DNA of 64,000 nt from Oscillospiraceae bacterium (GTDB lineage Bacteria; Bacillota; Clostridia; Oscillospirales; CAG-382). The notes beneath the pieces are model-generated. The model was given only the letters and a program-made list of their open reading frames with translations, searched no databases and had not been told where the DNA came from. Position numbers and translations under genes: made by a program. Positions 4,998-63,624 of the stretch are shown here, piece after piece. The stretch spans positions 202,787 to 266,786 of the forward strand of contig SVRI01000001.1 of the NCBI GenBank assembly GCA_015064895.1. The letters are read 5' to 3'. Numbering within the stretch: the stretch's first letter is position 1; every line of letters starts with the position of its first letter.

Positions 4998-5861
4998 TTA
5001 CTGCTTGTATATAATGTAGTCTGCGTTTTCCGCCTTTTCTTCAATCCAGTCAGCCGACATATCAATCCAGCGTCTTGTACGAAGGGGATAGTTCATGGGA
5101 GTTGTAACCTTGTCGGCAGTGGAAATGCCGTGGGGACCGTTCTCGAAAATATGCATTTCAAAGGGAATGTTCTGCTTTCTGAGAGAGTCGGCAAAGAGCA
5201 TTGTGTTTTCGCAGGGAACAGCCTTGTCGCCGAAAGTAGACCAAATGAATGTCGTAGGCGTATGCTCATCAACCTGCTTTTCAAGGCTGAGATAATCGAG
5301 CCACTTTTCATCGGGATACTTATCGCCGAGCACTGCTCTGAAGGAGCCTACATGGGCATGACATCCGCTGGTTATTACGGGATAGCAGAGCACAAGTCCG
5401 TTGGGCTTTACACTTTCAACATCTCCGAAATATTCAGCGCTTTCCTGTCTGTGCCAGTGTGTGCCGCAGCATGCCGCAAGATGTCCGCCTGCCGAGAAGC
5501 CGCACAGATAAATTCTGTCGGGGTCGCCGAAGTACTTGTCGGCTGTTTCTCTTACGTATTTAACCGCAGAAAGTGCCTCAAGCAATGCCACGGGATAAAC
5601 CGAGGGCATACAGGAATAGTAGAGAATACCAACGTTAAAGCCTCTTGCAAGATATTTGAGTGCAATGGGGTCTGCTTCACGTGAGCTTGTCATTGCGTAT
5701 CCTCCGCCGGGAAGTACTATGACGGTAGGTCTTTTGGGTGTGTAAACGCTGACGTGTTCATGCTCGTTGGGTATGTACAGCTTGAAGATTGTTTCATGTC
5801 CCTCGTCGGGTGCGTCGATTTTTGTAAAGTCAAGTTTTATTGTTTCTTCAATGTAAAGCAT
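4998..5861 (-). CDS. alpha/beta hydrolase, esterase/lipase type
   Basis: 287 aa; PGGGY oxyanion-type motif and GFSAGGH nucleophile elbow; the GGAGG RBS lies inside the heptamer repeat. Confidence 0.75.
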   Translation of the reverse strand: MLYIEETIKLDFTKIDAPDEGHETIFKLYIPNEHEHVSVYTPKRPTVIVLPGGGYAMTSSREADPIALKYLARGFNVGILYYSCMPSVYPVALLEALSAVKYVRETADKYFGDPDRIYLCGFSAGGHLAACCGTHWHRQESAEYFGDVESVKPNGLVLCYPVITSGCHAHVGSFRAVLGDKYPDEKWLDYLSLEKQVDEHTPTTFIWSTFGDKAVPCENTMLFADSLRKQNIPFEMHIFENGPHGISTADKVTTPMNYPLRTRRWIDMSADWIEEKAENADYIIYKQ

Positions 5862-6027
5862 TGTCGTTCCTCCTAACTTCTAACTCCTAAGCGGCGAGCC
5901 GCCGCAGGCAATTCACGGCATATGTTTGCAACAAACAAACCTTTGGTGTCGCGCAAACAACCCCGTTTGGTCGGCATAAACCCGACCGACCAAACTCTCT
6001 CCTAACTCCTAACTTCTAACTCCTAAC
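5862..6027. repeat. family-1 mosaic element (H7-D-linker-B-H7), fills the smpB-esterase spacer
   Basis: CTAACTY heptamers at 5872-5890 and 6001-6027; hairpin GCGGCGAGCCGCCGC (5891-5905); AATTCACGG (5910-5918); hairpin GTTTGGTCGG..CCGACCAAAC (5965-5996). An inverted, near-identical copy lies at 56814-57042. Confidence 0.9.
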
Positions 6028-6498
6028 TTACCTGTTTCTCTCTCTCATGGCACGTTCTATATCGCGGGCTGCCTGTTTCTTTGCCTCGGTATCGCGTTTG
6101 TCGTAGTTCTTTTTACCCTTGCAAAGACCAAGTTCAACCTTAACCTTGGAGCCTGAAAAGTACATTTTGAGGGGAATAAGCGTGTAACCCTCTTTACCGC
6201 ATAGACCGAAAAGCTTCATTATCTCCTTTTTGTGAAGCAGAAGTTTTCTTTCACGTCTCGGGTCTTTGTTGAAAATGTTGCCCTTTTCGTAGGGGCTGAT
6301 ATGTACGCCGTACATAATCATCTCGCCCTTTTCAACATGGCAGTAGGAGTCCTTCATGTTGACAGCACCCTGACGTATGCTCTTTACTTCAGTACCCGAT
6401 AGGGCAATGCCCGCTTCATATGTGTCCTCGACGAAATAGTCGTGGTATGCCTTTTTGTTCTGGGCTGCAATTTTTATGTTTTCGTTCTTGTCTGCCAC
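6028..6498 (-). CDS. smpB: SsrA-binding protein
   Basis: [33 protein letters not shown]... typical SmpB; GTG start. Confidence 0.95.
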
Positions 6499-8341: not shown

Positions 8342-8369
8342 AGGGTACAATGAAAAAATATTTCGAAAA

Positions 8370-8636
8370 AAGACTTTGACGGGAAAGAGTAGTAAAGAAA
8401 ACTGCCCACAGAGAGGATGCCGCAGGTGAAAGGCACCGCAAGAGCTTTATGAAAGTCATCCCCGAGTTTCTGCCCGAAGGTAACAAAGATTATTGTGTAG
8501 GCGCAGACGGTTTGTTACCGTTAAAAACAGAACCTTTTTACAAGGTAAGCGGTCGGTTTTTCCGGCAATCAGAGTGGTACCGCAGAGTGTTTTTATGACC
8601 TTTGTCTCTATTTGTTTGAGACAAAGGCTTTTACTA
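8370..8636 (+). promoter_or_regulatory. T-box riboswitch leader, probable Val (GUC) specifier
   Basis: AGTA box (8386-8393), AGAGA box (8408-8416), GGTGAAAG distal loop (8425-8433), GAAA-GTC-A specifier context (8451-8458), T-box AATCAGAGTGGTACCGCAG (8567-8585), terminator CCTTTGTCTC/GAGACAAAGG plus CTTTT (8599-8635). Confidence 0.85.
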
Positions 8637-10316: not shown

Positions 10317-10611
10317 CGGGGAGCCCCCGCGGGGAGCCCCCGCAGGCGTATCACGGGCAAGTTTCGCAATAAGCAAGCCCTCGTGGTCGCTTAAGTAACC
10401 CCGTTTGGTCGGCATAAATCCGACCGACCAAACTCAAACAGAATTTTAATCAGACAGTTCAAAAGTGGAATAGGGCTCGGCTATATAATAAAGAATATTT
10501 GCCCTCGGCAAATCCCCCCTAACACCTAACTCCTAACTTCTAACTTCTAACTTCTAACTTCTAACTTCTAACTCCTAACTCCTAACTCTTTTTCCCGGAG
10601 GTGAAAACACA
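10317..10611. repeat. family-1 mosaic element (D x2 - linker - B - spacer - H7 x10) between ilvB and ilvN
   Basis: GCGGGGAGCCCCCGC duplicated directly after the TAG stop; ATCACGG; hairpin GTTTGGTCGG..CCGACCAAAC (10403-10433); ten heptamers CTAACAC, CTAACTC, CTAACTT x5, CTAACTC x3 (10519-10588). Confidence 0.9.
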
Positions 10612-12168: not shown

Positions 12169-12380
12169 TCAGCGTTGCTTGAATTGAAATTATGCCTTCC
12201 CCTATCTCAGGGGAAGGTGTCAAAATCAAAGATTTTGACGGATGAGGTCTTGACAGACCAGGTGAAAGCAACCATCCATCTACCTCCTCAGTCACCTTGC
12301 GGTGACAGCTCCCCCTATGTATAGGGGAAGCCTGTATTGAATCTATTCAAAAATTTACAAGGGGGACTGTATGTTCCCCA
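12169..12380. repeat. family-2 element (Y then X) between ilvC and ilvD
   Basis: Y: GCCTTCCCC..GGGGAAGG (12194-12217), GTCAAAATC..GATTTTGAC (12219-12239), GGATGAGGT (12240-12248). X: ACCTCCTCAGTCACC-TTGC-GGTGACAGCTCCCCC-TATGTATA-GGGGAAGCC (12282-12332). Extra hairpin GGGGGA..TTCCCC (12361-12379). Confidence 0.9.
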
Positions 12381-21162: not shown

Positions 21163-21360
21163 GATGAACTAATTTAAGCCTTCCTCCCGGAGGAAGCCTT
21201 AGAGTAACACAATCTAACTAAGCCTTCCCCGTTGGGGAAGGTGGGTTGCGTCAGCAACTCGGATGAGGTTTGACGGATGAGGTTGAAATAATACACGGAT
21301 TGACCTCCTCAGTCACCTTTCGGTGACAGCTCCCCCTTCCCGAAGGGGAAGCCAAAAGCA
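21163..21360. repeat. family-2 element (hairpin, Y, then X) after the clp gene
   Basis: CTTCC..GGAAG (21180-21196); Y GCCTTCCCC-GTT-GGGGAAGGTGGGTTGCGTCAGCAACTCGGATGAGGT (21222-21269), with GGATGAGGT duplicated; X ACCTCCTCAGTCACC-TTTC-GGTGACAGCTCCCCC-TTCCCGAA-GGGGAAGCC (21303-21353). Confidence 0.9.
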
Positions 21361-27707: not shown

Positions 27708-27736
27708 TTGACAACGCAAAAAGCAAATGCTAGAAT
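27708..27736 (+). promoter_or_regulatory. own sigma-A promoter of the GH78-like gene
   Basis: TTGACA (27708-27713), 17 nt, TAGAAT (27731-27736). Confidence 0.6.
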
Positions 27737-27768
27737 TAAGAAAAATTATAACCAAGGTGGATGCGAAT

Positions 27769-30030
27769 ATGTGGATTAATACCGAAAAACCGAGACTTGT
27801 ATGGATTGGCAACAAGAGACCTCTCAGCGAGGACGAACATATTACATATACAAAGAAAATAAATGCCGATAAAAAGGTAAAAAGTGTAGTTGTGCGTTTT
27901 GAAAACGACTCCTCCTGTGCCCTTTATGTCAACGGAAATTTCGTTATAAGCGGTAACGGCAGAACTCCCGAAAGAGTTAACTGCCATGAAATTACATCCC
28001 TTTTTACTGTGGGCGAAAATGAAATTAAAGTAACTCTTGACTCAGGTTATTTTCAGGGCAGAACAGAGGATATTTCACAGTTCAGAGGCTTCCGTTTCTC
28101 ATGCTTTGCCATGGAATTTGATATTGAATTCCAAGACGGCACAAAATTGGTTGTGCCCACAGATGCTACATGGATGACAGAGGTTGAGGGAAAGAATGTT
28201 CCTGCAGATGAGGCAATGGCTGTAACCGACGGTGAGTATAATAACTTCTGGAAGTATGCGACGGTATGGCTTGAAAAGAAGCTCCACAAGGCAGAAATTC
28301 CCGAGGCCGTAACAAAGACTGTCGGAGAAGAATACAAGACGTATGCAGAAAAGGATGTTCCGAAGTACGCGTATCCCGAAAAGGTAGTAAAAACAAACAT
28401 GATTCTTGTCGGCGACAAGTATGTTTCCGACGAAAATTGCGATGAAGCACCCTATATCATCTACGATTTTGTGACAACAAGAGTGGGCTTTACCGAATTT
28501 GAATATAAGACAGAAAATGATACCATCGCTACTCTTGGTTTTGACTTCAAGGAAAACATTGTTGACTTTGACCATGACCCCGACTGCGAGTGGACATATA
28601 TAATAAAGGCACTTGTAATCAAGCAGAAACTGCATGGGGGCGAACATAAGGATTTCAACATAAGACGCCGTGCTTTCAGACTTTTGAAGGTGGAATTTGA
28701 AAAGGGTGCGAGGGTTGAAATCGGAAATGTAAGAATTCTCCAGTGCCTGTACCCCAACATGAAGGAAGGCTGGTTTGACTGCTCAGACGACAGGCTAAAC
28801 AAGTTTTGGGAAATGGGCAAGTACACACTTCATGTAAACAAGCAGCAGGAATACGAAAGCTGTCCCAGAAACGAAATGCTCTTTTTCTCGGGCGACGGTC
28901 TTCTTGACATGGTTGTTGACCTTTATGCCTTCGGCGAAGAAAAGCTTATGGAAAGCTCGCTTAGTCTCAATCATTCCGAGGCGGCAAGCGGCATTGCAAG
29001 CTCTGAGGACTTCAACAGAATCCGCCATCAGTGGGACTACTACGCATGGCGTGTTGTCTGCGTTGAATATTATTACAAAACAACCGGTAATAAGGAATTT
29101 TTGAAGAAATTTTTTGCACAGACAGAATCCGTCCTCAAGTGGCAGATTAACAGAATGGGCTACAACAACCTTATTTTCCAGCCCATGTGCATGATTTCTA
29201 CATATACCTTCGGCTATGCTCAGGTTGACTGGGCGTGCGGTATAGGCAGACTCGGCGACAAGCCGTATCTAAACGCACTTCTTTACAAGAGCCTGACGGC
29301 AATGTCTTATCTTGCAAAGGAACTCGGTGAAGATGCAAAGGCAAAAGAATGGGACGAGCTTGCAGAAAAGGTAAAGGATGCTATTAACAATGAACTCTGG
29401 AGTGAGGAAAAGCAGTCATATGTAGACAAGATGGCTGACTACATCTCCCACGACGGAAATCTTATACCTCTCTACTTCGGCGTTGCAGACGAAAAGAGAA
29501 CCAAAGCGGCTCTCGACACAATAAAGCGTGAGCTGTGGACACCTGCAGGTGCTGCAATTCTTAACAAGCCCATGAAGGACGTAAGAGGCGGAAATGTTGC
29601 GGTTTCTCCCTTTATGAGCTGTTTTGAATCGGAACTGAGATTTTTGAACGGTGATGAAGAAGGCGGTCTTGAAGTAATAAGACGTGTATGGGGTGCAATG
29701 CTCGACAGAGGTGCACACACCTGCTGGGAATATGTTCCCGTAGAAGAAGGCAAGTGGTGGGATGCTCTTTGCCACGCATGGGCAACAGGCTGTACATATC
29801 TTCTTTCGGCATATGTTCTGGGTATCAGAATGACAAAGCCTAACTTTACGGGAATTGTATTTGAACCTAAGCTCTGCGGACTTGAATATGCAAGAGGCGT
29901 TGTTCCCTGCGAAGGCGGATTTATTGCGGCTAAGTGTGAAAACGGAAAGTATACTCTCAGTGTGCCCAAAGGAACTGAGGTTGAAGTTAAGGTTCCCGAT
30001 GGCAGTGAAGTTGAAATTATAAGATACTGA
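27769..30030 (+). CDS. alpha-L-rhamnosidase-like (GH78-type, six-hairpin) glycosidase, cytoplasmic
   Basis: N-terminal region resembles the rhamnosidase N domain (ALYVNGNFVISG...GENEIKVTLDSGYF); C-terminal (alpha/alpha)6-like ...AVSPFMSCFESELRFLNGDEEGGLEVIRRVWGAMLDRGAHTCWEY; AAGGTGGA RBS before ATG 27769. Confidence 0.6.
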   Translation: MWINTEKPRLVWIGNKRPLSEDEHITYTKKINADKKVKSVVVRFENDSSCALYVNGNFVISGNGRTPERVNCHEITSLFTVGENEIKVTLDSGYFQGRTEDISQFRGFRFSCFAMEFDIEFQDGTKLVVPTDATWMTEVEGKNVPADEAMAVTDGEYNNFWKYATVWLEKKLHKAEIPEAVTKTVGEEYKTYAEKDVPKYAYPEKVVKTNMILVGDKYVSDENCDEAPYIIYDFVTTRVGFTEFEYKTENDTIATLGFDFKENIVDFDHDPDCEWTYIIKALVIKQKLHGGEHKDFNIRRRAFRLLKVEFEKGARVEIGNVRILQCLYPNMKEGWFDCSDDRLNKFWEMGKYTLHVNKQQEYESCPRNEMLFFSGDGLLDMVVDLYAFGEEKLMESSLSLNHSEAASGIASSEDFNRIRHQWDYYAWRVVCVEYYYKTTGNKEFLKKFFAQTESVLKWQINRMGYNNLIFQPMCMISTYTFGYAQVDWACGIGRLGDKPYLNALLYKSLTAMSYLAKELGEDAKAKEWDELAEKVKDAINNELWSEEKQSYVDKMADYISHDGNLIPLYFGVADEKRTKAALDTIKRELWTPAGAAILNKPMKDVRGGNVAVSPFMSCFESELRFLNGDEEGGLEVIRRVWGAMLDRGAHTCWEYVPVEEGKWWDALCHAWATGCTYLLSAYVLGIRMTKPNFTGIVFEPKLCGLEYARGVVPCEGGFIAAKCENGKYTLSVPKGTEVEVKVPDGSEVEIIRY

Positions 30031-30032
30031 TA

Positions 30033-30595
30033 AAAAAACGAGTTTGCACCGTTGCGTTTATGCGGTGCAAACGGAACACTAATCGAGAAACAAAGATTTA
30101 AAAACAAGGAAAAGCAGAAAAGGTGACAAATGCGAGTTCTTTTCCTACTTTTCTGCGAAAGGCGGCGGGTCGCCGCTGACAATTCACGGGGTGTTAAAAG
30201 ATAGAATTACCGCCACGGATGTCGCATAACAAATATGTAAAAAAACTTCTTGAGTTTGCACCGTTGCGTTTATGCGGTGCAAACGGAGTATCAATCGAGA
30301 AACAAAGATTTAAAAACAAGGAAAAGCAGAAAAGGTGACAAATGCGAGTTCTTTTGCCTACTTTTCTGCGAAAGGCGGCGGGTCGCCGCTGACAATTCAC
30401 GGGGTGTTAAAAGATAGAATTACCGCCACGGATGTCGCATAACAAATATGTAAAAAACTTCTTGAGTTTGCACCGTTGCGTTTATGCGGTGCAAACGGAG
30501 TATCAATCGAGAAACAAAGATTTAAAAACAAGGAAAAGCAGAAAAGGTGACAAGTGCGAGTTCTTTTGCCTACTTTTCTGCGAAAGAAAAGTAGG
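30033..30595 (+). repeat. tandem array, 212-bp unit x about 2.6 (family-1 modules B-C-D-linker)
   Basis: GAGTTTGCACCG starts at 30040, 30252 and 30464 (period 212). Units differ by a few substitutions and 1-nt indels. The last unit ends in a hairpin abutting the hisH ATG. Confidence 0.95.
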
Positions 30596-31228
30596 ATGAA
30601 AACACTTATTATTGACTACGGGATGGGAAATCTCCATTCTGTTAAAAATGCATTTGACTTTATCGGCGAGGAGGCGTACATTTCCTCTGACATAAATGAA
30701 ATGGAAAAGGCGGATGCACTGCTTCTTCCCGGTGTCGGTGCATTTCCCGATGCTTCGGATATGCTCTGTAAAAGCGGCATTGCTGACAAGATAATCGAAC
30801 TTTGCGGAAAAGGGGACAAGCCCCTCCTTGGCATTTGTCTCGGTATGCAGTTGTTACTTGACGAAAGTGACGAGGTTCGTCTTTCAAAGGGACTCGGACT
30901 TGTACACGGAAGATGCGAAAAGATAACCGACACAGGTCTTAAAATTCCACACATGGGCTGGAACGACCTTGTACTTGATGACAAAAACTGCCCTCTCTTT
31001 ACCGACACAAAGGACGGCGACTACGTTTATTTTGTACATTCCTTCAAGGCGGTACTCGAGGACAGAAAAAATCTTCTTGCACACACATTTTACGGCGAGG
31101 AAATCCCTGCTGTAATAGGCAACGGAAAGAATGTTTTTGGTTGTCAGTTCCATCCTGAAAAGAGTGAGAAGGTCGGACTTTCCATGTTAAAAGCATTTTG
31201 CGAATTTGCGAAACGGAAGTGTTTGTGA
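30596..31228 (+). CDS. hisH: imidazole glycerol phosphate synthase, glutamine amidotransferase subunit
   Basis: MKTLIIDYGMGNLHSV..., GICLGMQ, HSF, QFHPEKS. The ORF-track N-terminal extension translates the repeat. Confidence 0.93.
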   Translation: MKTLIIDYGMGNLHSVKNAFDFIGEEAYISSDINEMEKADALLLPGVGAFPDASDMLCKSGIADKIIELCGKGDKPLLGICLGMQLLLDESDEVRLSKGLGLVHGRCEKITDTGLKIPHMGWNDLVLDDKNCPLFTDTKDGDYVYFVHSFKAVLEDRKNLLAHTFYGEEIPAVIGNGKNVFGCQFHPEKSEKVGLSMLKAFCEFAKRKCL

Positions 31229-31240
31229 ATAAAGGACAAA

Positions 31241-31361
31241 ACCTCCTCAGTCAGCTTTCGCTGACAGCTCCCCCTGAAAGCAGGGGAAGCCTTAGTAACA
31301 ATGACTAACAAAAGCCTTCCCTTTTGGGGAAGGTGGGTTGCGTTAGCAACTCGGATGAGGT
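31241..31361 (+). repeat. family-2 element (X then Y), 121 bp, between hisH and hisA
   Basis: ACCTCCTCAGTCAGC-TTTC-GCTGACAGCTCCCCC-TGAAAGCA-GGGGAAGCC-TTAGTAACAATGACTAACAAAA-GCCTTCCC..GGGGAAGGTGGGTTGC-GTTA-GCAACTCGGATGAGGT; twin of 33619-33743. Confidence 0.95.
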
Positions 31362-31411
31362 CTGACGTATGATGAAAAAATCACTGTTGAAACAGAAAAA
31401 AGGTGAAAAAT

Positions 31412-32128: not shown

Positions 32129-32529
32129 AGTGCAGAAAGTTATGTAAGGAGAATCTTGCACTCTTCGAAGTACGTTTTCCGTACTTTTGTCCCGAAACAA
32201 AAGTACCAAAAATTCTCCACTCAACAAGAGGAGATGGGCGGCAAGTTGCCGCTGACAAACCGTCATTTTGACGGCATACCGAAAACCGTCAAAATGACAA
32301 ATACTGCTGTCGGGCTATCCCGACTCTGCGCTGACTTCCCCTCTTTTGCCGTGGAGGCTTAACTCCCCTCACTGGGTGTAGTGCAAGTTTGAAGCGATGA
32401 GTTTGGTCGGTTGCGTTTATGCCGACCAAACGGAATAAAAATCGAGTGATATAATATAGATAAACAAGGAGAGCGAGAAAGGTGACAAATGCGAGTTCTT
32501 TTGCTTACTTTTCTCCGAAAGAAAAGTAA
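32129..32529. repeat. 400-bp composite of family-1 modules (C-like hairpin, D, extra hairpins, B, C) between hisA and hisF
   Basis: GTACTTTTG-TCCCGAAA-CAAAAGTAC (32181-32206); GGCGGCAAGTTGCCGC (32237-32252); GTCATTTTGACGG..CCGTCAAAATGAC (32261-32298); GTCGGG..CCCGAC; B GAGTTTGGTCGG..CCGACCAAACGG (32399-32432); C ending CTTACTTTTC-TCCGAAA-GAAAAGTAAG (32504-32530). Confidence 0.9.
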
Positions 32530-33285
32530 GTGTTAGCAAAGCGTATTATCCCCTGTCTTGACGTAAAGGACGGCAGGGTAGTAAAGGGTGTAAATTTTGT
32601 GGGGCTGAGGGACGCAGGCGACCCTGTTGAAACGGCTCAGTTTTACAATACACAAGGTGCAGACGAGATAGTTTTCCTCGACATAACTGCATCCCACGAA
32701 CAGAGAAAGACGATAGTTGACGTCGTTGAAAGAACGGCAAGATGCGTATTTATGCCTCTTACCGTCGGAGGCGGCATTTCCTCGGTTGAGGACTTCAGAA
32801 CGCTTCTGAGTGTCGGTGCGGACAAGGTTTCAATTAACTCTGCGGCGGTGAAGGATAAGTACCTGATTTCCCGTGCGGCAGAGAAGTTCGGTTCGCAGTG
32901 CGTAGTGGTTGCCATTGATGCGAAACTCACTGACGACGGGTACCACGTTTTCATCCACGGCGGAAGAACAGACACGGGCATTGATGCTATAGAATGGGCA
33001 AAGGAAGTAGAAGCTCTCGGCTGCGGTGAAATTCTGCTTACAAGCATGGACGCCGACGGCACAAAGGCGGGCTTTGACATTCCTCTTACCGACATTATTT
33101 CAAAGACGGTGAACATTCCCGTAATCGCATCGGGAGGCTGCGGAAAGCTCGAACACTTTTCCGAGGTGTTTGAAAAAACAAATGCAGATGCAGCACTTGC
33201 GGCAACGCTTTTCCATTTCAGAGAGCTGACAATCGGCGAGGTTAAAGACTATCTCAGGAGCAAAAATATATGGGTAAGACATTAA
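32530..33285 (+). CDS. hisF: imidazole glycerol phosphate synthase, cyclase subunit
   Basis: [23 protein letters not shown] matches the canonical HisF N-terminus from residue 1; GTG start. Confidence 0.96.
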
Positions 33286-33618: not shown

Positions 33619-33743
33619 ACCTCCTCAGTCAGCTTTCGCTGACAGCTCCCCCTTTGTGAAAGGGGAAGCCTTAGTAACAATGACTAACAAAAGCCTTCCC
33701 ATTTTAAGGGGAAGGTGGGTTGCGTCAGCAACTCGGATGAGGT
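33619..33743 (+). repeat. family-2 element (X then Y), 125 bp, between hisI and hisE
   Basis: Same stems and linker as 31241-31361; begins 1 nt after the hisI TAG. Confidence 0.95.
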
Positions 33744-33764
33744 AAAAAAGAAAGGTTGAAAGAT

Positions 33765-57052: not shown

Positions 57053-57328
57053 ATGAAAACAAATCCTTATATCAATGTCGGCGGTACGCAGATACTTGCA
57101 AAGAGCGACATACTCGGAATATTTGACCTTGACACGGCAAGTACAAAAACAGATACAAAGCGTTTTCTTTCCAAATGCGAAAGCGAAGGACATCTTATTA
57201 TGGTGGGCAACGATATCCCCAAGTCCTTTGTGCTGACCGCAAGCGGAAGGAAAGAGCACGTTTATATGACTCAGCTTTCGGTGTCCTCCATTGAAGGCAG
57301 ATGGAAACGCAAGAATGCACATCTGTAG
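57053..57328 (+). CDS. remB: DUF370 / RemB-like protein
   Basis: 91 aa; YINVGGTQILAKSDILGIFDLD...; conserved position between recF and gyrB, as for B. subtilis yaaB/remB. Confidence 0.8.
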   Translation: MKTNPYINVGGTQILAKSDILGIFDLDTASTKTDTKRFLSKCESEGHLIMVGNDIPKSFVLTASGRKEHVYMTQLSVSSIEGRWKRKNAHL

Positions 57329-57431
57329 GGAAAGCCCTGCGGCAAATTCACGGTATATTTTCGCGAAAACATAGGCGTTTAGTGTCGCTTGACGAACACC
57401 GTTTAACCGCCATAAATGCAAGCGGTTAAAC
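57325..57431. repeat. family-1 element (D-linker-B) starting on the remB stop codon
   Basis: GTAGGG-AAAG-CCCTGC includes TAG 57326-57328; GGCAAATTCACGG; GTTTAGTGTCGC; B hairpin GTTTAACCGC-CATAAATGCA-GCGGTTAAAC (57401-57431). Confidence 0.85.
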
Positions 57432-60801: not shown

Positions 60802-62115
60802 ATGGTAAAAATATCGGGAATTGAAAGAAAATCCCTTGCCGAAAAGGCGGGGATACTTTCGGGAGACGAGCTTGTCTCCATAAATGACAATGAAATAAAT
60901 GATGTTCTCGACTACAGATTTTACCTGACCGAGAAGAAACTCAGGCTGCTTATTCACAGAGACGGCGACGAGCTTGTTTTTGACATAAAGAAGCCCCAGT
61001 ATGACGACATAGGTCTCGAATTTGAGACTTATCTCATGGACGAAAAGCACACCTGCACAAACAAGTGCGTGTTCTGCTTCATCGACCAGAACCCCGAAGG
61101 CATGCGAAAGATGTGCTACTTCAAGGACGACGACTCGAGAATGTCCTTCTTCTACGGAAACTACGTTACCCTTACCAATATGAAAGAGTCTGAGGTCGAA
61201 AGGCTTATCAAAATGAGAATTTCGCCCATCAACATTTCGGTGCATACAACAAATCCCGACCTCAGGTGCAAGATGTTAAACAACCGTTTTGCAGGGGATG
61301 TACTGCGTTACATGGACAAATTCCGCGAGGGCGGCATTGCCATGAACTGTCAGATTGTACTGTGCAAGGGTCTCAATGACGGAAAAGAGCTTGAAAGAAC
61401 ACTTGACGATTTGGTACAGCTTTTCCCGAGTGTTGAAAGCATTGCCGTAGTACCCTCGGGACTTACAAAGTACCGCGAGGGACTTTATCCCTTGGAGGAT
61501 TTTTCTAAGGAGGATGCAAGAGAGGTTATTCATCTTGTTAACTCCAAAAGACGAGAGTTTGAAGAAAAGACGGGTCACACCATTGTGCAATGCTCTGACG
61601 AGTGGTACTTAAAGGCGGGAATTGAGCTTCCCGACGAGGACTACTACGACGGATATCCCCAGCTTGACAACGGAGTGGGACTTATAAAAAGCATGGAAAA
61701 TGAGATTCTCATGCGAATCGGGGAGCTCAAGGAAGAAGGCTTTAAATTAGAAAAGCCGAGATGCCTTTCATCCGTGACAGGCACGGCAGCATACCCTTTT
61801 ATTTCTGCCATGGCAAAAATGCTGATGGAGGAATTTGAGGGGCTTACCTTTAACGTATACGAATGTAAAAACGAATTTTTCGGTCACTCGGTAAATGTTG
61901 CAGGGCTTCTTGTGGGTGAGGACCTGTACAACCGTCTGAAGAATGAGAACCTTGGCGAAGAACTGCTTATTCCCCACGTAATGCTTCGTCACGAGGGGGA
62001 TTTATTCCTCGACAACACGGACGTTGACGAGCTTGCCGAAAGGCTGAATATAAGCATATATCCCATTCCTGCATCCGACGGATTCTGTTTTGTGGATGCG
62101 GTGCTTGGTATATAG
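60802..62115 (+). CDS. DUF512-type radical SAM protein with N-terminal PDZ-like domain
   Basis: CTNKCVFCF (CxxxCxxC) cluster motif; PDZ-like N-terminus; ATG 60802. The upstream ORF-track extension translates the repeat. Confidence 0.78.
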   Translation: MVKISGIERKSLAEKAGILSGDELVSINDNEINDVLDYRFYLTEKKLRLLIHRDGDELVFDIKKPQYDDIGLEFETYLMDEKHTCTNKCVFCFIDQNPEGMRKMCYFKDDDSRMSFFYGNYVTLTNMKESEVERLIKMRISPINISVHTTNPDLRCKMLNNRFAGDVLRYMDKFREGGIAMNCQIVLCKGLNDGKELERTLDDLVQLFPSVESIAVVPSGLTKYREGLYPLEDFSKEDAREVIHLVNSKRREFEEKTGHTIVQCSDEWYLKAGIELPDEDYYDGYPQLDNGVGLIKSMENEILMRIGELKEEGFKLEKPRCLSSVTGTAAYPFISAMAKMLMEEFEGLTFNVYECKNEFFGHSVNVAGLLVGEDLYNRLKNENLGEELLIPHVMLRHEGDLFLDNTDVDELAERLNISIYPIPASDGFCFVDAVLGI

Positions 62116-62272
62116 GAATTAGGAATTAGGAATTAGGAATGAGTTTGGTCGGTGGCGTTTATGCCGACCAAACGGTATAATAATCGAGAAATAAAAACGG
62201 AAGAAAAATAGGAAAATTAGGTGCTCGGTGCGAGTTCTTTTTGCCTACTTTTTCTCCGAAAGAAAAAGTAGG
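62113..62272 (+). repeat. family-1 element (H7 x4 - B - C) spanning exactly from the DUF512 stop to the der RBS
   Basis: TAGGAAT x4 (62113-62140; the first TAG is the stop codon); B GAGTTTGGTCGG..CCGACCAAACGG (62141-62175); AATCGAG plus purine tract; hairpin CCTACTTTTTC-TCCGAAA-GAAAAAGTAGG (62244-62272). Confidence 0.93.
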
Positions 62273-62280
62273 TGGAAAAT

Positions 62281-63624
62281 ATGTCCAAACCCATAGTTGC
62301 CATTGTAGGTAGACCTAATGTAGGTAAAAGTACATTTTTTAATAAAATAGTCGGCAAGCGTATTGCCATTGTCGAGGACATTCCCGGTGTTACACGTGAC
62401 AGACTTTACTTTGAAGTCGAATGGTGCGGCAGAAAGATGATGTTCATTGACACGGGCGGTATTGAGCCTGACACAAACGACATGATTATGACGCACATCA
62501 AGACTCAGGCTGAGATTGCCATTGAATCTGCCGATGCCATTGTTTTTATGACAGACATCCGCGCAGGCGTTACTGCCGACGACAGAGAAATCGCGTCAAT
62601 GCTCAGAAAGAGCCAAAAGCCTGTTGTTCTCTGCGTAAACAAGGTGGACTCTGTGGGTGCGCTTCCCATGGAATTCTACGAATTCTATGAACTTGGACTC
62701 GGCGATCCCTTTGCCGTATCCTCGGTACATGGCAGCGGTACAGGCGATATCTTAGAGCAGCTGTGCGAGTATCTTCCCGAAGAAATCGAGGAGGAAGAAG
62801 ACGAAGACAGAATTAAGGTTGCGGTTATAGGACGTCCAAATGCCGGTAAATCCAGCCTTGTCAACCATATTCTCGGCAAGGAACGCATGATTGTATCAAA
62901 TGTGGCAGGTACAACCCGTGACGCCATTGACTCGGATGTTGAAAACGACCACGGAAAGTACGTCTTTATTGATACGGCAGGCATAAGAAAGACGGGCAAA
63001 ATCGGTGACAGCATAGAAAAGTACAGCATCCTTCGTGCCGAAATGGCGGTGGACAGAGCCGATGTATGTTTAATTGTTGTTGATGCAACAGAGGGCATTA
63101 CCGCCCAGGACGAAAGGGTTGCGGGCATTGCCCACGAAAGCGGCAAGGCGTGCATTATCATCATAAACAAGTGGGACCTTGTTGAAAAGGAAACGGGTAC
63201 ATTAGAGAACTACCGCAAGGAAGTTTACGAAAAGCTGTCATATATGACATACGCTCCCGTACTCTTTATCTCGGCAAAGACAGGTCAGAGGGTTGACAAG
63301 ATTTACGAGCTTATCAACTATGTTCACGACCAGAGCTGTATGAGAATTTCTACGGGTATGCTCAACGACGTTCTTAACGAAGCTACAAACCGTGTGCCTC
63401 CGCCAACAGACAAGGGCAGACGCTTAAAGATTTACTACATGACACAGACGGGCATCAAGGCGCCTACCTTTGTCATGTTCGTAAACGACGCAGAGCTTTT
63501 CCACTTCTCCTATCAGAGATATATCGAAAACAAGCTTCGCGAGGTCTTCGGCTTTGAAGGCACGCCCATAAAGCTTGTTATACGTCAGAAGGGCGAAGAC
63601 GAGCTCGAAAACCCCGGCAGGTAG
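62281..63624 (+). CDS. der: ribosome-associated GTPase Der (EngA)
   Basis: MSKPIVAIVGRPNVGKSTFFN..., second G domain VAVIGRPNAGKSSLVN, KH-like C-terminus. Confidence 0.96.
   Translation: MSKPIVAIVGRPNVGKSTFFNKIVGKRIAIVEDIPGVTRDRLYFEVEWCGRKMMFIDTGGIEPDTNDMIMTHIKTQAEIAIESADAIVFMTDIRAGVTADDREIASMLRKSQKPVVLCVNKVDSVGALPMEFYEFYELGLGDPFAVSSVHGSGTGDILEQLCEYLPEEIEEEEDEDRIKVAVIGRPNAGKSSLVNHILGKERMIVSNVAGTTRDAIDSDVENDHGKYVFIDTAGIRKTGKIGDSIEKYSILRAEMAVDRADVCLIVVDATEGITAQDERVAGIAHESGKACIIIINKWDLVEKETGTLENYRKEVYEKLSYMTYAPVLFISAKTGQRVDKIYELINYVHDQSCMRISTGMLNDVLNEATNRVPPPTDKGRRLKIYYMTQTGIKAPTFVMFVNDAELFHFSYQRYIENKLREVFGFEGTPIKLVIRQKGEDELENPGR

Follow-up and report, generated by a model that had tools for sequence, protein, structure and literature searches.

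A hairpin-ended interspersed repeat at the translation starts of hisH, hisF and der in an uncultured ruminant-gut Clostridia lineage

Introduction

Dispersed repeats that carry a ribosome-binding site as well as an ATG, and that lie directly upstream of unrelated open reading frames (ORFs), are known from Neisseria as REP2 (CREN) and from Borrelia plasmids as inverted-repeat (IR) repeats (PMC3184786). The present analysis concerns a comparable arrangement in a 64-kb stretch of the genome of an Oscillospiraceae bacterium (contig SVRI01000001.1; the whole stretch is referred to as the window), in which hisH, hisF and der are each preceded by a copy of a repeat that ends in a perfect hairpin, designated H3. 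A first-pass annotation of this DNA had described the hairpins as a shared cis-acting translational control device with no described equivalent. An equivalent in kind does exist in the Neisseria and Borrelia repeats (PMC3184786), which are the closest known analogue.

Repetitive extragenic palindromic (REP) sequences and the bacterial interspersed mosaic elements (BIMEs) that they build provide a second point of reference. REPs affect mRNA stability and the translation of neighbouring genes; in E. coli they form a barrier to RNases and confer segmental mRNA stability.

The hairpins at hisH, hisF and der can be attributed with high confidence to repeat insertion. The account as a whole, in which the insertions replaced native spacers, as comparison with relatives shows, and a start codon carried by the element itself sustains translation, is probable on balance; on this reading the element would not be a signal-responsive regulator. 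The coupling mechanism taken on its own, in which the element-borne start rescues translation, is proposed more tentatively, as possible but somewhat doubtful.

The Repeat and Its Copies in the Window

In the window, a T-box leader precedes an ilv operon; a his operon and then der lie further along. The his operon is ordered hisG, hisD, hisC, hisB, a gene for a 767-aa rhamnosidase-like glycoside hydrolase (GH), hisH, hisA, hisF, hisI and hisE. The three hairpins lie where the first-pass annotation had placed them. At hisH, CCTACTTTTC-TGCGAAA-GAAAAGTAGG occupies 30569-30595 and is followed at once by the ATG (30596-30598). At hisF, CTTACTTTTC-TCCGAAA-GAAAAGTAAG spans 32504-32530, and the GTG start takes its first base (32530) from the final G of the hairpin; this start is accepted. 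At der, CCTACTTTTTC-TCCGAAA-GAAAAAGTAGG covers 62244-62272, the ATG follows at 62281, and an AGGTGG straddles the 3' foot of the hairpin. The distance from the hairpin-bearing segment to the start codon is thus 0 nt at hisH, -1 nt at hisF and 8 nt at der. The stem of H3 is better read as 11-12 perfect base pairs closed by a 5-nt loop, NCGAA.

The homology of the ~135 nt before each start was borne out by a family search and alignment, which group these segments, at 71-99% identity, in repeat families D1/D2. The hairpin is therefore carried by an interspersed repeat of ~135 nt, which is polymorphic among relatives. Within the window, GCGAGTTCTTTTGC with at most two mismatches occurs 10 times against 0.79 expected, the hairpin pattern three times against 0.19, and the pattern of the first hairpin of the element (H1) eight times against 0.16; counts so far above the expectation from shuffled sequence exclude chance. 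The copies and their immediate surroundings are as follows, SD denoting Shine-Dalgarno.

30038..30162, + strand: repeat copy c1, with H1, AATCGAG, purine linker, AGGTGA-caa-ATG, GCGAGTTCTTTT and the 5' arm only of H3; family D1, 81% identity
30163..30249, + strand: linker within the 212-nt unit, containing a module with a GC-rich hairpin (GGCGGCGGGTCGCCGC TGACAATTCACGG); repeat family D7
30250..30374, + strand: repeat copy c2, H3 truncated as in c1; it serves as the D1 family reference, and contig L080 lacks this unit
30462..30595, + strand: repeat copy c3, complete and flush with the hisH ATG (30596), from alignment and fold
Parts of c3: H1 30466-30496; SD-like AGGTGA 30545-30550; in-frame GTG 30554-30556; conserved flank GCGAGTTCTTTTG 30556-30568; H3 30569-30595
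32181..32396, - strand: degenerate element, placed head-to-head with the copy before hisF; the hairpin at its end, GTACTTTTG-TCCCGAAA-CAAAAGTAC (32181-32206), faces the hisA stop (32128)
32397..32530, + strand: repeat copy before hisF; H1 32401-32431; AGGTGA 32480-32485; mini-ORF from ATG 32489 to TAG 32534-32536; H3 32504-32530
62115..62138, + strand: run of GGAATTA heptamers between the stop of the DUF512 gene and the der element; heptamer runs occupy the same place in L091 and L092
62139..62272, + strand: repeat copy before der; H1 62143-62173; AGGTG 62219-62223; H3 62244-62272
GTG 62228 to TAG 62294-62296, + strand: der mini-ORF, out of frame and overlapping the der start (ATG 62281)

Copies c1 and c2 had been missed in the first-pass annotation. 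In both, the 3' arm of H3 is replaced by the GC-rich hairpin module, which yields the 212-nt tandem unit. The module at 30163-30249 is the reverse of the tail that follows H1 in a related element at 5890-5990(-), and the same module follows a truncated H3 in L017. In total the window holds three complete and two truncated copies of H3, which is thus a short extragenic palindrome present in many copies. The hairpin that had been listed as a fourth copy, at 32181-32206, is genuine; it belongs, facing outward, to the second, degenerate element that stands head-to-head with the hisF repeat. An H1-like hairpin of this element lies at ~32268-32300 when the minus strand is read, and the 32181-32206 hairpin with the same flank is also found between convergent genes in L089/L090.

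Anatomy and Structure of the Element

The anatomy of the element was deduced from an alignment of 15 copies from the window and related genomes. It is directional, ~135 nt in length, and consists of H1, AATCGAG, an A/G-rich linker, GGTG, RTGCGAGTTCTTTTG and H3, in that order. The stem of H1 is variable yet perfectly paired, with a conserved loop, TTGCGTTTATG, and the purine-rich linker after AATCGAG is not conserved. GGTG is invariant in all 15 copies, 11 of which have an ATG, GTG or TTG 3-4 nt further on, and the CGAGTTCTTTTG that precedes H3 is almost invariant. The covariance check across relatives that the first-pass annotation had proposed identified H3 as the sole consensus structure (RNAalifold), with compensatory changes at three pairs, the two outermost included; broken pairs are all confined to one decayed copy, that of L085. 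Local folds containing H3 have predicted energies of -17 to -20 kcal/mol, compared with -4.4 for the empty, unstructured hisH allele.

H3 is not followed by a U-run, and so does not terminate transcription. A scan of the element for promoters and intrinsic terminators, covering only sigma-70-like sites on the promoter side, found nothing; a TTGCGT...TATAAT-like pair around H1 was considered as a promoter and rejected because it is not conserved. No Rfam family was found at the element either at the gathering score or at E values up to 10. Full-text searches with the hairpin and flank sequences returned no relevant paper, and literature searches aimed at an earlier account of the family did not yield one; the family, which Rfam does not contain, appears to be undescribed.

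Presence and Absence in Related Genomes

The loci were compared with public contigs encoding the same or closely related proteins, cited by their L numbers. A contig whose HisF protein is identical and whose hisF coding DNA is 96% identical (L081) begins to match the window at 32531, the second base of the start codon. Upstream it has another repeat followed by ACGCAAAGGATAATAGT-ATG, that is, a normal SD (AAAGGA-N8-ATG), so that the last base of the element has turned an ATG into a GTG in the window. The same H3-free arrangement precedes hisF in L086. In L085, whose HisH is 87% identical, an H3 element occupies the same hisF junction (AAG|TGTTAGC), with a decayed stem in which pairs are broken.

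At hisH, three contigs at 86% identity (L086, L087 and L088) have the same gene order in compact his operons, with a repeat-free GH-hisH spacer of 32 nt, against 565 nt in the window, and a hisH-hisA spacer of 27 nt; the hisB-hisH spacer of L085 measures 38 nt. The GH gene itself (27727-30030, between hisB and hisH) is present in L086 and absent from L085, where hisH follows hisB directly. L084, at 89% identity, carries the H3 module 4 nt before the hisH ATG. Measured against the repeat-free relatives, the native spacers of hisH and hisF have been replaced, not interrupted, and the replacement of the native initiation region reaches up to or into the start codon.

At der, orthologous copies are present in L091 and L092 and absent from L090 (metagenome-assembled genome [MAG] RGIG8792, 98% Der identity), which has a different, heptamer-flanked repeat and the native CCCGGAGGTTTTAATATG (GGAGG-N8-ATG). 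In L091 (95%) the element lies upstream of a retained native SD. L092 (91%) and the window have both lost the native der SD, and AGGTGA or AGGTGG is now provided by the hairpin foot. Copy number varies as well: L080 is 99.9% identical to the window, yet it has two tandem 212-nt units before hisH in place of three (window 30028-30595 against L080 1713-2066). Occupancy is thus polymorphic between related genomes, as for elements of the type of miniature inverted-repeat transposable elements (MITEs).

These comparisons show that, over times ranging from within a species to within a genus, the element is gained and lost or is swapped through recombination, and that hisH, hisF and der function without it in relatives. 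Because it comes and goes while the same genes have ordinary SD starts elsewhere, a dedicated translational switch is not supported.

Distribution and Class of the Repeat

Representative genomes of the GTDB were scanned for GCGAGTTCTTTT-N(1-4)-TACTTTT, which defines a GCGAG-anchored set of ten loci, all from uncultured ruminant or gut Clostridia. H3 is complete in nine of them, with one wobble pair in L036; in the remaining locus, L017, the matched copy is truncated, and a second, complete copy adjoins hisF downstream. Seven of the ten lie 0-17 nt upstream of a co-oriented start, the genes behind them being an rqcH-like gene, argH, a sugar kinase gene, a gene for a BMC-domain protein (bacterial microcompartment shell), an EamA transporter gene, tpiA and hisF. 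The remaining three point at a convergent gene's 3' end.

When metagenome contigs were searched with the hairpin as the sole pattern, 27 loci were recovered, mostly of a human-gut subfamily that has a different body; the H3 module at these loci is often arranged in tandem arrays. By a crude ORF analysis, ~11 of these loci lie within 60 nt of the stop of a convergent gene and ~6 within 60 nt of a co-oriented start. H3 begins right after the stop codon of spoIVA in L092 (TAA|CTTAC...), where the window has an ordinary terminator, and it does so at stop codons in L056, L057, L046 and L016 as well. A preference of the hairpin for start codons does not extend to the family, which favours gene boundaries in general, in start, stop, convergent and tandem contexts. 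Among 57 distinct copies of H3 from the fetched loci, the two arms of the stem match perfectly in almost every case, even though the outer 2-5 pairs vary from copy to copy; G-T pairs are rare, and the 3' flank has no consensus. In head-to-head pairs, found in L016, L029 and L047 and also in Paraburkholderia and Solimonas, the H3 ends point outward to the flanking genes.

A near-identical core, GTTCTTTTG(C/G)(C/T)TACTTTTCT...AGAAAAGT(A/G)(A/G), is found in repeats of other phyla, at 40 or more places per replicon in Paraburkholderia chromids and also in one Solimonas MAG and one Patescibacteria MAG. In the loci that carry it (L051 923-1628, L052, L002, L005, L027, L028, L044 and L006), the AT-rich core, GTTCTTTTG with ACTTTTCT/AGAAAAGT, is embedded in GC-rich repeats, often head-to-head, and overlaps the Rfam candidate Bp1_684. 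A search of a phage collection gave chance matches to the purine tract only.

As judged from alignments and family searches, H3 forms the palindromic 3' end of a modular repeat that is interspersed, directional and REP/BIME- or MITE-like, and the family has evidently colonised intergenic spacers, including those inside operons, of an uncultured ruminant-gut Clostridia lineage. Several other assignments were rejected. A MITE with terminal inverted repeats does not fit, since its left 'repeat' is a separate element in opposite orientation (32181/32530, and likewise in L016, L029 and L047). The 5' end of group II introns (GTGCG), attC, dif/Xer, CIRCE and LexA boxes do not fit beyond 5-8 nt. A CRISPR-like reading of the arrays in L061 (188-377) and L076 (946-1060) fails because the 'spacers' are themselves repeated; these arrays have a period of ~78 nt, in which a 36-nt H3 module alternates with a segment of ~42 nt.

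Proposed Effect on Translation

Inspection of the sequence confirmed that hisH and hisF have no SD outside the hairpin, so that the hairpin must shape their initiation regions. In the polycistronic mRNA, a perfect 11-12-bp hairpin would abut the start of genes whose native SD is gone. HisH and HisF are presumably needed, and their translation must then be kept up in some way. For this the element-borne AGGTGA-N3-RTG, located 42 nt upstream of the start in an open, unstructured purine tract, is the best candidate, and most likely fulfils this role. Ribosomes initiating at the element RTG would read through H3 and melt it, with a different outcome at each gene.

At hisH, the element start is in frame: the ORF 30554-31228 adds 14 residues, and public gene callers report a product of 224 aa. 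The candidate N-termini of HisH are MRVLLPTFLRKKSRMKT in the extended form and MKT (MKTLI) in the shorter one, and no public record was found for the exact 210-aa protein. Translation from the element would thus yield HisH with 14 extra residues. At hisF, the mini-ORF ends at UAG 32534-32536, 2 nt after the GUG, which is a classic termination-reinitiation distance, and ribosomes terminating there could re-initiate at the GUG. At der, they would pass the AUG by 16 nt; here part of an AGGTGG SD also lies clear of the stem. Just one further copy abuts an ATG directly, that of L039, and its element frame is likewise in frame. The element may accordingly be described as an accidental portable initiation cassette, a property that may explain the survival of the subfamily copies directly upstream of genes. 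The location of this subfamily upstream of genes, as opposed to that of the others mainly at 3' ends, would be consistent with its carrying initiation signals.

Several observations weigh against this account. The copy adjoining hisF in L017 (RGIG8792) reads ATA, not ATG, at the mini-ORF start, and four of the 15 aligned copies (L017, L029, L036 and L084) have no start codon there, so that rescue by the mini-ORF cannot be general. In-frame cases number only two, for which the chance is about 0.11. The encoded peptide is not conserved, and a conserved leader peptide was rejected as a candidate because 1-nt indels shift the frame between copies. The conservation of RTGCGAG may simply be that of the H3 flank; it is also found in the tandem units of the human-gut subfamily. 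The der hairpin has been kept with changed but still paired stems in relatives at 91-100% Der identity, which could reflect selection on the hairpin itself. As to insertion, no transposase, target-site duplication or terminal inverted repeat was found: a Pfam scan of ten less obvious window ORFs gave no transposase domain, none adjoins any copy inspected, and no direct repeat flanks any copy, the 3' flanks being heterogeneous; recombination between copies is not distinguishable from transposition.

Alternative Explanations

The reading of the first-pass annotation, in which H3 is a dedicated regulator that sequesters the initiation region until temperature, a protein, an sRNA or an anti-hairpin sequence upstream opens it, and that co-regulates hisH, hisF and der, is very unlikely. 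A hairpin that lies at or within 8 nt of three start codons, folds stably and shows compensatory stem changes does speak for it, as do the retention of the der hairpin with different stem sequences in relatives at 91-95% identity and the placement of seven of the ten GCGAG-anchored Clostridia loci of other genomes no more than 17 nt upstream of a co-oriented start. However, close relatives have the same genes without the element and behind normal SDs (hisF in L081/L086, hisH in L085/L086, der in L090), and the hisF copy of L085 has decayed. The same module also occurs antisense, flush with stop codons, between convergent genes and in tandem arrays, and the target genes have no functional link. 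Pairing between GCAGAAAAG (30538-30546) and CTTTTCTGC (30573-30581) is possible, as had been noted, but it is unused in the predicted folds, and the complementarity is confined to the hisH copies. In RNA thermometers of the fourU or ROSE type, a stem of marginal stability, with mismatches or wobbles, covers the SD; here all 11-12 pairs are Watson-Crick, the energy is -17 to -20 kcal/mol, the stem has no weak points, and neither hisH nor hisF has an SD in or near it.

H3 might instead act at the DNA level only: as a single-stranded hairpin or a cruciform, it would be recognised or cleaved by an enzyme that serves mobilisation or recombination, such as one of the HUH/Y1 class known from REP-RAYT or IS200/IS605. 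The RNA form would then be irrelevant, and the genes would be translated from weak residual signals. This explanation is considered unlikely, less so than the regulatory one. Palindromes maintained as DNA would be expected to show what is seen in almost all 57 copies, perfect complementarity despite differing outer pairs, with G-T rare. The conservation of the inner stem ACTTTTCT/AGAAAAGT and the flank GTTCTTTTG across phyla (at least 40 places per replicon in Paraburkholderia; Solimonas; Patescibacteria), the GTAG/CTAC at the hairpin foot, as in REPs, and the polymorphism of copy number and occupancy point the same way. Set against these are the missing transposase in the window ORFs scanned and beside the copies inspected, a GTAG that is paired and not a free 5' tetranucleotide, and the missing target duplication; the expression of the SD-less hisH and hisF would also be left unexplained. 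Such a role is compatible with the repeat-insertion account and does not exclude it.

Least persuasive, together with the regulator, is an RNA module that eases insertion in operons. Here GUUCUUU(U)G (GUUCUUUUG in RNA form) would serve as a boxA-like NusB/NusE site and, with the hairpin, as a nut-like element that suppresses Rho-dependent polarity in long untranslated spacers, or else the hairpin would be an RNase barrier that sets segmental mRNA stability. NusB-NusE bind boxA, with the consensus GCUCUUUAACAA (GUUCUUUGAAAAC in Firmicutes), where the transcript carries it in sense orientation. No single-stranded stretch of the element is more conserved than GTTCTTT, which is invariant in 15 of 15 copies and common to several phyla, and which resembles the rrn boxA of Firmicutes and Mollicutes, GTTCTTTGAAAAC. 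Elements stand in sense orientation inside the his and ilv operons, the lack of a U-run after H3 leaves transcription unterminated, and the Burkholderia counterpart, the SIPHT small RNA candidate Bp1_Cand684, is reported to be transcribed (RT-PCR positive), to lie between pdhB and lpdA and to be detectable in several phyla (PMC3521395). The match is nevertheless limited to 7-8 nt, the 3' half differs, and many copies are antisense to the genes that flank them. No rRNA leader of this lineage with which to compare boxA was found among the fetched loci, and a full-text search for the boxA string gave no relevant paper.

A broader proposal, which we regard as improbable, treats the 40-nt unit of GTTCTTTTG and the AT-rich perfect palindrome (NNNACTTTTCT-loop-AGAAAAGTNNN) as an unrecognised functional module that ranges from Clostridia to Burkholderiales, Nevskiales and Patescibacteria. 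On one version, a mobilisation system would act on it in cis and set elements flush with coding boundaries; on the other, it would be a boxA-like-plus-hairpin RNA module that eases insertion inside operons. The Clostridia lineage studied here would have coupled the unit to an SD and a start codon, and the resulting mobile initiation cassette would now drive essential genes (hisH, hisF) by hairpin melting coupled to an upstream ORF.

Related Repeats and Other Features of the Window

Three related elements lie outside the his operon and the der locus.

5890..5990, - strand: element with the same H1 and a different tail that ends in a GC hairpin; the heptamers behind it provide an AGGAGG ahead of the ORF whose start is at 5861
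10329..10435, - strand: related element with H1 and GC-hairpin tail in the ilvB-ilvN spacer, antisense to the operon; family D8
57325..57420, - strand: diverged element with H1 and tail, identified by the H1 pattern

Runs of 7-nt tandem repeats (TTAGGAG/TTAGAAG, GGAATTA, GCGGAAT, GTGAATA) flank hairpin repeats, sometimes inverted on both sides. They are located at 5863-5893, 5999-6029, 10509-10595 and 62115-62138 in the window, at 9770-9990 in L090 and downstream of spoIVA in L091; the run at 5863-5893(-) provides the AGGAGG SD of a downstream hydrolase gene. A second, unrelated repeat family with inverted ends (ACCTCCTCAGTCAGC...GGGGAAGCC ... GGGGAAGGTGGGTTGCGTCAGCAACTCGGATGAGGT) is present at 12263-12332, 21220-21353, 31222-31381 and 33619-33763, filling the ilvC-ilvD, hisH-hisA and hisI-hisE spacers and one other, and a related copy sits upstream of hisF in the H3-free L081 and L086. 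Rfam models identified the T-box leader upstream of ilvB (8367-8612, 109 bits) and a Gut-1 RNA (RF01706; 37566-37639, 65.8 bits), the latter consistent with an origin in gut Clostridia. Downstream of der, the helicase gene is followed in relatives by a prophage-like block with small and large terminase and a P22-type portal (18976-21341 in L089/L090, 16467-21338 in L092), in a region beyond the end of the window.

Significance

As the his operon case shows, a selfish intergenic repeat can take over the ribosome-binding region of an essential biosynthetic gene, even contributing the first base of its start codon, and still be tolerated. It bears on gene-start annotation in MAGs, where public calls already give the 224-aa HisH. 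If the element-borne SD and start are used, the element is a natural portable initiation cassette. The recurrence of its core module in distant phyla is unusual for REP- or MITE-type repeats and points to a putative conserved interacting machinery.

Comparison with Known Systems

The element shares several properties with the REP/BIME sequences of Enterobacteria and Pseudomonas (REP-RAYT, REPIN). These are short extragenic palindromes whose foot is formed by GTAG/CTAC; they are found alone, as inverted pairs or combined with other modules in mosaics, and are located in operon spacers and just past stop codons. REPs, however, are GC-rich, imperfect and lineage-specific, with an unpaired GTAG, whereas H3 is AT-rich and perfect, with GTAG, GTAA or GTAC paired inside its 3' arm and no unpaired GT[AG]G. 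H3 is in addition joined to a directional body of ~100 nt, its core is common to Clostridia and Proteobacteria, and no RAYT gene was identified among the ORFs scanned. Like the MITEs Correia/CREE, BOX, RUP and ERIC, which alter the expression of genes beside them, the element is a small non-coding mobile repeat of intergenic regions that varies between strains and is presumably transcribed with flanking genes. It differs from them in being directional and in having no detectable terminal inverted repeats or target-site duplication, although head-to-head pairs mimic inverted repeats.

Rfam RF02421 (Bp1_684) has a model whose first stretch, AGAAAAGUGACC, corresponds to the 3' arm of H3 in its proteobacterial version. 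The scores of this model against the Paraburkholderia repeats, 35-42 bits, stay below the 44-bit gathering threshold, and it has no match in the window, where the GC-rich part downstream of H3 that it covers is lacking. In erm leaders, phage MS2 and coupled operon genes, as proposed here, ribosomes of an upstream frame melt a hairpin at the next start or stop within a few nucleotides. Unlike those systems, the arrangement described here was made by repeat insertion, the upstream-frame start is not conserved in all copies, and no stalling or sensed signal is evident.

REP2/CREN has a promoter and contact-dependent induction, and no sigma-70-like promoter was found in the present element. This repeat also differs from both REP2/CREN and the Borrelia IR repeats in ending in a perfect palindrome that occurs beside stop codons as well and in other phyla. 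It is not known to share sequence similarity with either of them. The likeness is one of organization. All three are dispersed repeats of ~120-150 nt that lack terminal inverted repeats and contain internal stem-loops. As with REP2/CREN, copies of the present repeat stand upstream of unrelated, co-oriented ORFs at hisH, hisF and der and at seven of the ten GCGAG-anchored loci, which is not true of the wider H3 family. In REP2/CREN and the Borrelia IR repeats, a ribosome-binding site with its start codon can be fused to the adjoining ORF (PMC3184786); the AGGTGA-N3-ATG/GTG of the window copies is a candidate for a signal of the same kind.

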